DNA of 25,161 nt, taken from the IMG/VR virus record IMGVR_UViG_2851938318_000004; one strand, 5' to 3'. The translations under genes and the position numbers were made by a program. Each line of letters opens with the position of its first letter. Within the stretch, counting starts at the first letter, position 1. This document shows, one piece after another, positions 15,213 to 17,545 of this stretch. Below the pieces are notes generated by a model. That model saw nothing but the letters and a program-made list of their open reading frames with translations, was not told the origin of the DNA and ran no database searches. This DNA comes from a virus. Lineage: Duplodnaviria > Heunggongvirae > Uroviricota > Caudoviricetes.

Positions 15213-15303
15213 GGATATATAGTGATGAGGGTTATGTTTTCTGTGTTTATAATTAACATGTTTATTTTTTGATGGTCATGTATTGTGGAAGGTAGATAAA
15301 ATG

Positions 15304-15332
15304 TTGCCTGGTGAATTGAAAATATTGATAAT
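15304..15332 (+). promoter_or_regulatory. Candidate sigma70 promoter TTGCCT-N17-GATAAT upstream of the CPBP gene (possible PR'/qut region)
   Basis: Hexamers read from sequence; lies in the Q-proximal AT-rich intergenic region. Confidence 0.3.
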
Positions 15333-15363
15333 CAATCTTCATCATTAAATAAAAGGAGTGCTT

Positions 15364-16182
15364 ATGTGGATTGTGTTAGTACTGTCACTGTCAACTCTCA
15401 GTTGGCATAAGGTAGTGGCTTTTTCATTGTTGACGGTGTCTGTTGTCCTGGCTGTGCTTAATGATATTATTGATTGGTCGGTGTTATTTTTTGTTGCTAC
15501 AATCGTTTTTTTTATTATTTTGAAGTTCAACTGGAAATATAACGCCTGGGCTAAATCTATATATGAAGTTGGCATAGTTTTATCAGCCATAGCATTATCT
15601 TTCCATCTATGGCCAGGGTTTCACAATCCTGTAGTGCTAAATTCTGTTACTGTTGGCCCTCAAAGTACTCCCTATACAATGTATTTTAATTTTGATAAAG
15701 CGCTGGTGCCATTTTTGTTAGTCCTGTGTACATCTTCTTTGTTTAAAAAAGAAGTAAAATCAGAAGTGTCTTTGTGGAAGTGGGGGGCTCTGTCGCTCTC
15801 TGTTCCTCTTATCCTGTTTTTGGCTGTTTTTTTTGGTGGATTAAAGCCAGAGATTCATTTTCCTGAGTGGTTGCCAGAGTTTATATTGGCTAATTTGTTT
15901 TTTGTGTCTCTGGCAGAGGAATCATTATTTAGAGGGTATATTCAATCACGGCTATCAGAAGTAACGTCTCCATTGGTTGCATTAATTGTGGCGGCTTTGT
16001 TGTTTGGTTTTTATCACTATTCAGGTGGTGCTTTACTTGTATTATTTGCCACGTTATCTGGTGTTGTGTATGGATTGTCATGGATGTGGAGTGGGCGTTT
16101 GTGGGTTGCCACCCTTTTCCATTTTGGTTTGAATCTGTGTCACTTGTTATTCTTTACCTATCCATTTTTAAAACATAATTGA
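15364..16182 (+). CDS. CPBP (CAAX protease / bacteriocin-processing, Abi-domain) intramembrane metalloprotease, about 272 aa, multi-pass membrane protein
   Basis: All three CPBP motifs present: EESLFR (EExxxR), FGFYH (FxxxH), HFGLN (HxxxN). Strong AAAAGGAG SD; visibly AT-rich coding sequence. Confidence 0.8.
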   Translation: MWIVLVLSLSTLSWHKVVAFSLLTVSVVLAVLNDIIDWSVLFFVATIVFFIILKFNWKYNAWAKSIYEVGIVLSAIALSFHLWPGFHNPVVLNSVTVGPQSTPYTMYFNFDKALVPFLLVLCTSSLFKKEVKSEVSLWKWGALSLSVPLILFLAVFFGGLKPEIHFPEWLPEFILANLFFVSLAEESLFRGYIQSRLSEVTSPLVALIVAALLFGFYHYSGGALLVLFATLSGVVYGLSWMWSGRLWVATLFHFGLNLCHLLFFTYPFLKHN

Positions 16183-16322
16183 TTTTTTCTATGGTTTTAA
16201 ATTTATAAGACTGAAAAATAGCAGGACGTGACATTTGCATGAAAAATATGCACGGCAAAGCATTTACGTACGTAAAAAATCAGGTATGCTGTTAAGAGTG
16301 GTTATTTCGCCGCATAGCTTGA

Positions 16323-16345
16323 CCCCGCCTCTGAGCGGGTTTTTT
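16323..16345 (+). terminator. Intrinsic terminator in the CPBP / winged-helix intergenic region
   Basis: CCCGC-CTCTGA-GCGGG followed by TTTTTT. Confidence 0.5.
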
Positions 16346-16468
16346 GTGCCCGCAAAGTAGCGCAGTGCGTTAAATGTGCTGGTAGTTATTAATACAGGTC
16401 TTTCAGCTTGCTGGCTTTTTCGGCAAGAGTTATTGGTGTGTCACGTTAACCGGAAAGGGTAAAAAGAC

Positions 16469-16666
16469 ATGCTGAAACAGCAGGATATGACAGAAACCGC
16501 CAGAGTTGTGTTTGATGAATTAAGCGTCACCGAACCGGCGACAGTCGGGGAGATTGCGCAGAATACTTACCTTTCACGCGAACGCTGCCAGTTAATACTG
16601 ACCCAGCTTGTTATGGCGGGTCTGGCAGACTATCAGTGCGGTTGTTACAGACGCCTTCAGTCCTGA
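16469..16666 (+). CDS. Small winged-helix-like putative DNA-binding protein, 65 aa
   Basis: VTEPATVGEIAQNTYLSRERCQLILTQLVMAGL resembles an HTH recognition unit; SD-like AAGGG; terminator hairpin spans its stop codon. Confidence 0.45.
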   Translation: MLKQQDMTETARVVFDELSVTEPATVGEIAQNTYLSRERCQLILTQLVMAGLADYQCGCYRRLQS

Positions 16667-16678
16667 AGGCTTTTTTAT
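16653..16678 (+). terminator. Intrinsic terminator
   Basis: GCCTTCA-GTCC-TGAAGGC followed by TTTTTTATTT. Confidence 0.55.
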
Positions 16679-16803
16679 TTGTGGTAAATGGGCGGCTGGT
16701 GGGTGTTAGCGGCACCTGTCAGTCCTTTGCTTATGTGTTGATGATAATTTACCTTTTGGGGCTATAATTGAACTAACCAATTGCTAATGAAAGTAAAATT
16801 ATA

Positions 16804-17517
16804 ATGGTTGTTGTCTGTTCAGTTATCATGGTTTGCTCCCCAATTAATATTTTTCTTGAAAAGGATACGTTGTCACTTAAGCCCGGCTCAGTCGTTCTGG
16901 CCACCAAATGCATCAGGGCGCTTTTCCTTATGCATTATGGCAAAGTTAAAATTTTCGATATAAACCATTCCATAGTAAGTCAATATCTGGAAATTCAGCA
17001 TAAGCTGACAAGAACTCATCTGACTGACGTTCCGCTTTATCTGTCACTGGAACCCAACAACCCTGCGTTGGCTGAGGCTTTAATTACCAGCCAGAGATTT
17101 TCCGGAGATACCACGGATATGTTTCTTATGATGGCATGCCTGTCGCTGTTTGAATCAGATGAACGGATATTATTATTTTTAAGTGGATGTTTATCCAGTA
17201 TAAGTGCCAAAGTCAGGGCGATAATTCAGACAGATATATCAGCAAGCTGGACGCTTGGTGCGATTGCGTTACGCCTGCATATGAGTGAGAGTTTGTTAAA
17301 GATAAAACTGAAAAATGAAGGGCACATGTTCAGTCGCTTGTTGCTGGAAGAGCGGATGCGTGTTGCTGTGAATATGTTATGTTCCCGGCATGGATATGGA
17401 CAGGCTGTAGCAGAAAAATGCGGTTATTCAAGCTGGTCCTACTTTATTTCTGTATTTCACCGCTATTATGGCTTCCCGCCAGACAGATATGTATCCAGGC
17501 AAGGGCTTGATTATTGA
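16804..17517 (+). CDS. AraC/XylS-family transcriptional regulator (C-terminal HTH_18), up to 237 aa; start uncertain
   Basis: C-terminal signature WTLGAIALRLHMSESLLKIKLKNEGHMFSRLLLEERMRVA...YSSWSYFISVFHRYYGFPP; AT-rich; no clear SD at the first ATG. Confidence 0.7.
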   Translation: MVVVCSVIMVCSPINIFLEKDTLSLKPGSVVLATKCIRALFLMHYGKVKIFDINHSIVSQYLEIQHKLTRTHLTDVPLYLSLEPNNPALAEALITSQRFSGDTTDMFLMMACLSLFESDERILLFLSGCLSSISAKVRAIIQTDISASWTLGAIALRLHMSESLLKIKLKNEGHMFSRLLLEERMRVAVNMLCSRHGYGQAVAEKCGYSSWSYFISVFHRYYGFPPDRYVSRQGLDY

Positions 17518-17545
17518 TTTTCATCTGATTATTATTTTTTGACCC

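Follow-up and report, generated by a model that had tools for sequence, protein, structure and literature searches.

A CPBP protease gene, a conserved small gene and psrA as separately assorting units between Q and the tRNA genes of an Escherichia coli O111:H- prophage

The Caudoviricetes record IMGVR_UViG_2851938318_000004 of IMG/VR comprises 25,161 nucleotides, a stretch referred to here as the window, in which three genes lie between the antiterminator gene Q and a cluster of tRNA genes. They encode a CPBP (Rce1/Abi-type) glutamic intramembrane protease, a small protein of 65 residues and an AraC-family regulator. An earlier note, made from the letters of this DNA, had grouped the trio as one AT-rich island at a single cargo site after Q, and had suggested a role in lysogenic conversion, immunity or exclusion, with expression either from the Q-controlled late promoter or from a promoter of its own. 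The locus poses the questions of whether the three genes form one system, which of them belong to the late transcript, and what an intramembrane protease might do at such a position. The computational analysis described here leads to the reading, to which we assign a probability of about 80%, that the interval from Q to the tRNA genes is a mosaic of three independent units in an Sp4/CP-933M-type prophage of E. coli positive for the enterocyte effacement locus (LEE).

The whole window corresponds, with a single mismatch, to the prophage beside yccA in E. coli O111:H- strain 11128. Positions 13126-20258 are 99.2% identical to prophage Sp4 of O157:H7 Sakai, where the genes follow in the same order, ECs1084 (Q), ECs1085, ECs1086, ECs1087, ileZ-argN-argO and ECs1088, and where ECs1085 is labelled 'CAAX amino terminal protease family' and ECs1087 'AraC-family regulator'. 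Taken in its entirety, the locus is already familiar from the reference enterohemorrhagic E. coli (EHEC) genomes. Its Q protein shares 86% of its amino acids with QuuD of the K-12 prophage DLP12 and matches the Q21 structures 6P18 and 6JNX in a phmmer search (E = 7e-8). All three open reading frames (ORFs) that follow are real and purifying selection acts on each, the ratio of nonsynonymous to synonymous substitution rates (dN/dS) being 0.12-0.23 for the CPBP gene, 0.09-0.15 for the small ORF and 0.25-0.46 for the psr genes, to which the AraC gene belongs. The description of the trio as AT-rich holds for two of its parts: the CPBP and psr cassettes have GC contents of 36.0% and 40.9%, and the small ORF, at 51.0%, is like the flanks (52-55%). 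The two cassettes also come and go at a fixed position, as morons do; the small ORF lacks the foreign base composition.

A survey of the neighbourhoods of homologues indicated that the three genes do not keep consistent company. E. albertii prophages carry a QuuD-type Q gene, an 83%-identical CPBP gene and then the holin, endolysin and spanin genes, with no small ORF, AraC gene or tRNA, and CPBP copies of E. coli and Shigella with 62% and 59% amino acid identity likewise lie directly after a QuuD-type Q. Conversely, psr-like genes (89-91% identical protein) occur behind other Q types without a CPBP gene, beside the small ORF and tRNAs, in one case immediately upstream of stx2; Sakai Sp9 has Q and the small ORF followed by a DNA methylase gene and then the tRNAs. 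Among 44 IMG/VR loci with a CPBP relative, 41 have a QuuD-type Q before the gene, the exceptions being L064, whose Q is of the lambda type, L066, at a prophage end, and L068, a fragment of 732 bp. The gene is followed by the small ORF and psr (about 22 loci), the small ORF and a methylase gene (10), the small ORF and other genes, or the holin gene directly. The frequencies in complete E. coli genomes diverge as well: the CPBP gene is present in 574 of 5,426, nearly always as a single copy, and psr-like genes in 927, with a median of two copies.

The boundaries of the psr cassette are sharp. In the methylase-bearing locus L036, whose backbone is 99.6% identical from Q to 16745, and in L051 and Sp9, homology to the window ends at 16740-16745 and resumes at 17545, which delimits a psrA cassette of about 800 bp. 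The three genes are a mosaic of independently assorting units, two morons and one backbone gene. Were they instead one co-inherited module or operon, such as a protease-controlled switch or a single immunity or exclusion system, their adjacency on one strand and in one order, 100% conserved in 540 complete E. coli genomes, would be readily accounted for, as would the trio combination in about half of the IMG/VR loci and the correlated expression of the first two genes in strain EDL933 (see below). We regard this explanation as very improbable, because each member is found without the others, psr is exchanged for a methylase gene within a nearly identical backbone, between the genes lie a promoter/terminator unit and a further terminator, expression of the third gene is uncorrelated with that of the first, and the small ORF is frameshifted in O157:H7, where psrA functions according to the literature. 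The trio should not be studied as one unit.

The unit that separates the first two genes consists, in the window, of a palindrome (16263-16276), 8 nt, a -10 hexamer TATGCT (16285-16290) and a hairpin followed by a T-run (16324-16345). The palindrome, TTTACGTACGTAAA, is perfect over 14 bp, contains the -35 hexamer TTTACG and has a chance expectation within the window of 0.00. The common form of the element, namely exact TTTACGTACGTAAA, 8 nt, TATNNT, a conserved gTTAAGAGTG and a hairpin with a T-run, was present in every QuuD-type-Q locus compared (the window, E. albertii, two more diverged E. coli lineages, Shigella and DLP12) and was not found in the loci with other Q types. When IMG/VR was scanned for the palindrome, N8 and TATNNT, 80 readable loci emerged, and a QuuD-type Q gene lies upstream on the same strand in 67 of the 67 that have enough upstream DNA. 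The hairpin with T-run recurs 25-66 nt past the -10 hexamer in 28 of 34 distinct promoter versions, several of them with unrelated stems, a pattern expected if terminator function is conserved; the stem at 16324-16345 is itself conserved, with loop changes, in E. albertii and DLP12. In the window (16263-16345) and in DLP12 (L022 6196-6277) alike, the -10-like TATGCT is followed by a conserved TAAGAGTG and then by the terminator.

The order of promoter, Q site, short leader and terminator tR' is that of the late units of lambda, 82, 21 and the Shiga toxin (Stx) phages. By this likeness, the palindrome unit is probably the Q-specific late promoter PR' together with the Q site (qut), a short leader and tR', and the terminator at 16324-16345 would be the tR' of the backbone rather than a terminator of the cargo, although transcripts of the CPBP gene would end there too. 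As in the lambdoid PR'-qut-tR' units, a short leader is closed by an intrinsic terminator, the unit is specific to one Q family and the Q protein is related to Q21. Lambdoid PR' directly follows Q, whereas in the window, as in prophages of the DLP12 type, cargo has come between Q and the unit; a further distinguishing feature is that the candidate Q site is a perfect 14-bp palindrome that overlaps the -35 hexamer. The palindrome is a candidate Q-binding sequence for this Q family. In Stx phages, a leader RNA, StxS, is made at the PR'-qut-tR' unit (PMC7547250).

If the unit is PR', the small ORF is the first late ORF, with psrA and the tRNAs, all likewise downstream of the palindrome, further along the late transcript. 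A conserved ORF of 41-59 codons at 16235-16360 was considered as a peptide gene and rejected, as it overlaps the promoter/terminator unit and the position of its stop codon is not conserved. A consensus scan of 16183-16262, between the CPBP stop codon and the palindrome, returned no promoter-like site.

The single cargo site supposed to follow Q resolves into two slots, one on either side of PR'/tR': the first, from Q to PR', receives nmpC or the CPBP gene, and the second, downstream of PR'/tR', receives psr or a methylase gene, the tRNAs and stx. The survey defines the first slot by the distance from the Q stop codon to the palindrome, which is 24-61 nt where the site is empty (8 loci), about 1.54-1.68 kb where it holds the nmpC porin gene on the reverse strand (50 loci, one of them at 2.87 kb), 1042-1061 nt with the CPBP gene (6 loci) and 797-1727 nt with other cargo (3 loci). 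The other cargo (L081, L115, L141) includes a 329-aa antirepressor-like ORF and a 197-aa ORF with CxxC pairs. The closest parallel is the nmpC moron of the cryptic K-12 prophage DLP12 (qsr' region), which occupies the same slot between a QuuD-type Q and the palindrome-bearing unit, upstream of the lysis genes, and whose product, like the CPBP protein, is an envelope protein made in the lysogen. The two differ in that nmpC lies on the opposite strand and encodes an outer-membrane porin, whereas the CPBP gene runs in the direction of Q and its product is a protease of the inner membrane. Slot and palindrome both help to annotate lambdoid prophages and to predict whether a given cargo gene is expressed already in the lysogen or only once the prophage is induced.

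The second slot has its counterpart in the Q-to-stx region of Stx phages, which contains the same block of small ORF, terminator, ileZ-argN-argO and nanS-p esterase gene at about 90% identity. Stx2k phage phiSTEC1575 and strain STEC409 have the small ORF, a psr-like gene, the tRNAs and then stx2. The window differs in having no stx; the Stx phages have other Q types, no CPBP gene and mostly a DNA methylase gene at the place of psrA.

Because the unit specific to this Q type begins downstream of the CPBP stop codon (16182), the CPBP gene would lie outside the Q-antiterminated late operon, and its proposed expression from the Q-controlled late promoter is not borne out. The alternative promoter proposed for it, a TTGCCT-N17-GATAAT match (9 of 12 positions), is there, and E. 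albertii copies have TTGTCA-17-GATAAT at the same place. Published strand-specific RNA-seq of EDL933 under 11 conditions (PMC4048457, Table S4) points in the same direction. In LB medium, Z1786 (Q) has 5 reads per kilobase per million (RPKM), Z1787 has 39 (51 with antibiotics) and Z1788, which tracks Z1787, has 11; Z1789 (psrA) has 7 in LB and 0 with antibiotics, and goes up at pH 9, at pH 4 and in faeces (PMC4048457). Across conditions, Z1787 correlates with Z1788 (r = 0.88) and not with Z1789 (r = -0.51; PMC4048457 data). This pattern is consistent with transcription of the CPBP gene in the lysogen from a promoter of its own, partial read-through of the terminator at 16324-16345, and a separate psrA unit. 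By these published data, with the gene matched by its order, uninduced lysogens transcribe the CPBP gene, and its transcription is independent of that of psrA. Lysogenic-conversion cargo with a promoter of its own was in our judgement probably the right idea, the promoter being a consensus match and the expression that of the published RNA-seq.

The CPBP gene might instead be the first gene of the Q-dependent late operon, with 15304-15345 as PR' and the product acting in lysis, for instance in its timing or in the processing of holin, spanin or signal-anchor-release (SAR) endolysin. The gene always lies directly after Q, at 120-280 nt, the lysis genes come next in E. albertii, in L064 it lies past a PR'/tR'-like unit of a lambda-type Q, and Z1787 rises by 2.3 log2 units under antibiotic, prophage-inducing conditions. 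This is nevertheless an unlikely account: the Q-type-specific unit is downstream of the gene and directly follows Q where the slot is empty, the reverse-oriented nmpC of 50 loci in the same slot cannot belong to a late transcript, uninduced expression of Z1787 is 8-fold that of Q, and no plaque-forming isolate in INPHARED has the gene.

The regulator at the other end of the trio is PsrA (ECs1087/Z1789), an already-published YdeO/GadX-like regulator of glutamate decarboxylase (GAD) acid resistance and of the LEE. The gene differs from ECs1087 by one synonymous nucleotide and the proteins are identical; the same RefSeq protein, WP_000261909.1, is found in O111 and in the current EDL933 assembly. 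ECs1087 on Sp4 was named 'psrA' in a 2026 paper by the laboratory that named the Psr regulators (PMC13502914). Together with PsrB and PatE, PsrA is one of the prophage-encoded AraC-like regulators of EHEC O157:H7 (Tree et al. 2011, Yang et al. 2015 and Bender et al. 2012, by way of review PMC10877973); according to reviews, it increases the amounts of GadE and YhiF, by way of these two it represses type III secretion by the LEE, and it adds to persistence in sheep (PMC10877973, PMC8565820). Recognition that this regulator is known is a corrective result of the analysis. The CPBP and 65-aa proteins are uncharacterised.

The same reviews equate psrA with Z1789 on OI-50/CP-933N (PMC10877973, PMC8565820). 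No AraC gene follows Q in Sakai Sp6, corrected EDL933 CP-933N, Sp9 or Sp10, and the potB/potC prophage lacks one in Sakai and in two current EDL933 assemblies, where psrA lies in the yccA prophage (Sp4/CP-933M). Under the old numbering of EDL933 (PMC4048457 table), the genes run Z1786 (Q), Z1787, Z1788, Z1789, three missing numbers, Z1793 and Z1794 (holin). This order matches ECs1084-1088 with the missing numbers as the tRNAs, which resolves the discrepancy between reviews and assemblies; the OI-50 label seems to derive from the first EDL933 assembly. The label of Z1789, 'putative envelope protein', is read as an EnvY-like, AraC-type label.

Domain searches agree with this identity. PsrA exceeds the cut-offs of HTH_18 (36.6 bits against 33.6) and HTH_AraC (35.3 against 26.6), matches the solved DNA-binding domain of GadX, 3mkl (1.5e-18), and aligns with phrog_1450 over residues 3-236 and with the YdeO model NF007407 over residues 1-229 (9e-30); with 104 bits against an equivalog cut-off of 348, it is a relative of YdeO and not YdeO itself. 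Since the YdeO-model and phrog_1450 matches extend over the full length, the start that gives 237 aa is right and the 195-aa annotation in Sakai is too short. The Sakai reference starts psrA (ECs_1087) at an internal ATG, 42 codons late (window 16804-16929), and the position of the promoter also supports 237 aa. The left edge of the cassette coincides with a match to ATGATA-16-TATAAT, the best consensus match of the region, and psrA would thus appear to have a promoter of its own besides its place on the late transcript.

Relative to the described PsrA system, the window encodes the same protein in the same type of effector-carrying prophage with a Pch/PerC regulator, at the same place before ileZ-argN-argO, and differs only in coming from O111:H- rather than O157:H7. 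The paralogue L006, 90.6% identical, agrees with the figure of 90% reported between PsrA and PsrB. A PerC/Pch-family regulator is encoded in the same prophage (23278-23592, +), and the effectors TccP2 and an EspV fragment lie just outside the window in the O111 genome (L001 26149-27880); this content agrees with reports that psr genes are associated with pch and effector loci.

The protease gene has no such literature: a literature search found no characterised prophage CPBP of E. coli and no paper on this gene. Translation starts at ATG 15364, five bases past an AAGGAG Shine-Dalgarno sequence. GTG 15358 was rejected as a start, as ATG 15364 has the AAGGAG and Met1 and Trp2 are invariant among homologues. 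The product, 99.6% identical to ECs1085, matches PF02517 over residues 171-260 with 70.6 bits against a cut-off of 22.4; this match and those of the regulator confirm the identities first read from the letters for these two genes, and the small protein may, as was also first read, be HTH-like (helix-turn-helix). The catalytic motifs EESLFR, FGFYH and HFGLN are all intact, as had been claimed, and hold on proper alignment. Across 35 homologues of 48-84% identity, there is no variation at E185, E186, R190, F214, H218 or H253, and conservation of N257 is at least 90%, a pattern that suggests selection on catalysis. An AlphaFold2 (AF2) model (mean predicted local confidence, pLDDT, 93.2; predicted template-modelling score, pTM, 0.91) confidently predicts a polytopic, helical CPBP fold. 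Its best matches in the PDB are SpdC (6u0o; probability 1.00, TM-score 0.48/0.52) and Rce1 (4cad; probability 0.91), with E-values of only 0.016-0.038.

With the characterised members of the family (Rce1; the Abi proteins PlnI/SkkI of bacteriocin immunity; Staphylococcus aureus SpdC and MroQ; the myxosortases) the prophage protein shares the Pfam domain, the three motifs and the polytopic helical fold, and SpdC and Rce1 are its nearest solved structures. It differs from them as a distinct enterobacterial subfamily of 270-276 aa whose conserved N-terminal half (HLxPGFHNP...YxNFDKAxxPF) is found in no characterised member; it falls far below the cut-off of every NCBIfam equivalog model, it has no adjoining gene for a bacteriocin, a sorting-tag protein or a kinase, and its carrier is a prophage of a Gram-negative host. 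Full-length relatives of about 50% identity are solitary chromosomal genes of Enterobacter, Dickeya, Hafnia, Providencia, Serratia and others. The copies of Escherichia and Shigella were prophage-borne wherever their context was examined. A tblastn search of 50,697 phage genomes (INPHARED) returned two weak Listeria matches only, a BFVD search returned generic CAAX-like proteins only, and no candidate substrate gene is encoded near the CPBP gene.

The resemblance to SpdC raises the alternative that the protein works without proteolysis, as a scaffold or regulator in the membrane of the kind represented by S. aureus SpdC/LyrA and group B streptococcal Abx1, and modulates a sensor kinase or an envelope enzyme of the host instead of cleaving a toxin or phage protein. 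Among solved structures the best match is SpdC complexed with SagB, and several sources call homologues 'lysostaphin resistance A-like'. Set against this, motifs 1-3 have kept their catalytic residues unchanged or almost unchanged at 48-84% identity, and the Rce1 match ranks similarly to that of SpdC, so that we consider a scaffold improbable, to the same degree as a gene of the late operon. Least probable of all is that neither the CPBP gene nor the small ORF does anything for phage or host, both being mere passengers of a prophage in decay. Sp4-type prophages are indeed ridden with insertion sequences (IS) and rearranged, the small ORF is frameshifted in O157:H7, and no phenotype has been reported for either gene; but dN/dS is 0.09-0.23 across deep divergence, 572 of the 574 genome copies span at least 80% of the CPBP gene, the small protein keeps at least 77% identity from genus to genus, and lysogens transcribe the CPBP gene. 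The latter is a protease gene of the major EHEC and enteropathogenic E. coli (EPEC) lineages that is expressed, maintained by selection and intact in its catalytic residues, and it is as uncharacterised as its chromosomal relatives in other Enterobacterales.

The proposed course of events at the locus is as follows. An AT-rich CPBP moron of 1,050 bp is inserted between a Q21-family Q gene and its probable late promoter. The protease would be made in the uninduced lysogen from its own sigma-70-like promoter, with transcripts ending at the backbone terminator 16324-16345. The late unit would comprise the palindrome with its -35 hexamer, the -10 hexamer, a leader of about 50 nt and tR', followed by the gene for the HTH-like protein. 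The psrA cassette, in a slot where sibling prophages have a DNA methylase gene, encodes PsrA, the published activator of gadE and yhiF, and would start at its own promoter. The protease might cleave or disarm a membrane-targeted peptide toxin, or the injection protein of an incoming phage, and so confer immunity or exclusion.

Characterised bacterial CPBP proteins include bacteriocin-immunity factors. By analogy with these, and given the selection on catalytic residues, the expression in lysogens and the porin gene nmpC as the alternative cargo of the slot, a role of the protease in lysogenic conversion at the envelope, through toxin immunity or phage exclusion, is favoured, if only tentatively. 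It is similarly possible, though doubtful, that the protein is an active inner-membrane protease that E. coli otherwise lacks, made in the lysogens of about 10% of complete genomes (mostly LEE-positive EHEC and EPEC), where it would protect or remodel the lysogen. Its targets might be a microcin-type toxin, a phage DNA-injection protein or a membrane protein of the host or of a secretion system. Such an activity, if true, would be the first function for the enterobacterial CPBP subfamily and for any phage-borne CPBP protein.

Several observations weigh against the reading developed above. All promoters described here, PR' included, are consensus and comparative assignments, and Z1787 is equated with the CPBP gene by gene order only, in the old and partly misassembled EDL933 annotation. 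PADLOC gave no match for the CPBP or AraC proteins, and the chromosomal CPBP orthologues of Enterobacter, Dickeya, Hafnia and Salmonella have no conserved neighbour gene. In L064, whose Q is of the lambda type (PF03589), a 55-58% identical CPBP gene (4001-4807) lies past the PR'/tR'-like unit (3738-3823), an arrangement in which the protease can also sit within a late operon. The same locus implies that the CPBP gene has been captured beside two unrelated Q families.

The small ORF is a conserved phage backbone gene and not cargo. Homologues of 63-65 aa and at least 77% identity occur in prophages of E. coli, Salmonella, Klebsiella, Citrobacter and Buttiauxella, and all four of the four single-nucleotide differences from Sakai fall at third codon positions. 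The Pfam TrmB model scores 17.8 bits, under its cut-off of 25.6 (E = 0.003); the annotation pipeline PGAP applies the name TrmB family to some homologues, and PF17782 is assigned to three of the clusters listed. A PDB profile search gave nothing below E = 0.18, a PADLOC search gave a match at chance level only (E = 0.0034), and the AF2 model has three helices in an HTH-like arrangement at low confidence (mean pLDDT 65). The strong conservation of this protein gives it an interest of its own as the product of the first ORF past tR' in many lambdoid and Stx phages. The ORF is intact in the O111 window; O157:H7 Sakai and EDL933 have a 1-nt deletion (16615 versus Sakai L003 3489; EDL933 L188 19667-19863) that alters the C-terminus of the protein (79 aa) and that PGAP tags as 'frameshifted'.

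Terminator-like hairpins are abundant in the region, with 13 in 14800-18400 against 3.9 +/- 2.1 in shuffled sequences, the strong ones being those at 16324-16345, 16653-16676 and 17810-17835. Of the terminators once ascribed to each gene, the hairpin at the small-ORF stop codon (16653-16676) stands, that of the CPBP gene is the backbone tR', and psrA has no convincing one of its own, the next strong hairpin being at 17810-17835, past the tRNAs. The coordinates of all features are collected in Table 1.

Table 1. Features from Q to the tRNA cluster, in window coordinates; promoters and tR' are candidate assignments.
Feature	Position	Strand	Evidence
Antiterminator Q, QuuD type (Q21 family)	14841..15212	+	Pfam PF06530 Phage_antitermQ 4.9e-52
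CPBP cargo cassette between Q and the inferred late promoter	15213..16262	+	36.0% GC, 1,050 bp
Sigma-70-like promoter candidate for the CPBP gene, TTGCCT-17-GATAAT	15304..15332	+	Consensus scan 9/12
CPBP (Rce1/Abi-type) glutamic intramembrane protease, 272 aa (= ECs1085)	15364..16182	+	PF02517 1.4e-19
Inferred Q-dependent late promoter PR', palindrome TTTACGTACGTAAA + TATGCT	16263..16290	+	Co-occurrence with QuuD-type Q
Intrinsic terminator, inferred tR'	16324..16345	+	CCCGCCTCTGAGCGGG + T6
65-aa HTH-like backbone protein (phrog_331; = ECs1086)	16469..16666	+	phrog_331 6e-37
Intrinsic terminator overlapping the small-ORF stop codon	16653..16676	+	GCCTTCAGTCCTGAAGGC + T6; folding z-score -2.7
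psrA cargo cassette	16741..17544	+	40.9% GC; homology breaks versus methylase-bearing loci
Promoter-like site for psrA, ATGATA-16-TATAAT	16741..16768	+	10/12, region's best consensus match
psrA, AraC/XylS (YdeO/GadX-like) regulator, 237 aa (= ECs1087 = Z1789, WP_000261909.1)	16804..17517	+	HTH_18, HTH_AraC above cut-off
tRNA cluster ileZ (CAT) - argN (TCG) - argO (TCT), right boundary	17546..17795	+	ARAGORN, Rfam

The tRNA cluster at the right boundary is annotated tRNA-Ile/Arg/Arg in RefSeq. For its first member (17546-17621), ARAGORN gives 'Met (CAT)' and RefSeq gives tRNA-Ile (ileZ); ileZ is the lysidine-modified CAT tRNA usual in Stx-type phages. Within 15213-17520 no Rfam family was found, either at the gathering threshold or at E <= 1. 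Between the terminator of the tRNA cluster and the nanS-p esterase gene, at 17872-18062 (+), there is a strong Rfam match to the small RNA (sRNA) STnc100 (138 bits, E = 1e-30). Elsewhere in the window lie the sRNA DicF (5430-5481, -) and a sok antitoxin RNA beside hokD (12646-12820, +). Two IS3-family (IS1203/IS629) copies with the ALIL frameshift pseudoknot are present at 2913-3029 (-) and 24764-24880 (-); the right copy lies beyond the lysis region, and the left copy cuts an exonuclease gene into two fragments in the RefSeq annotation.

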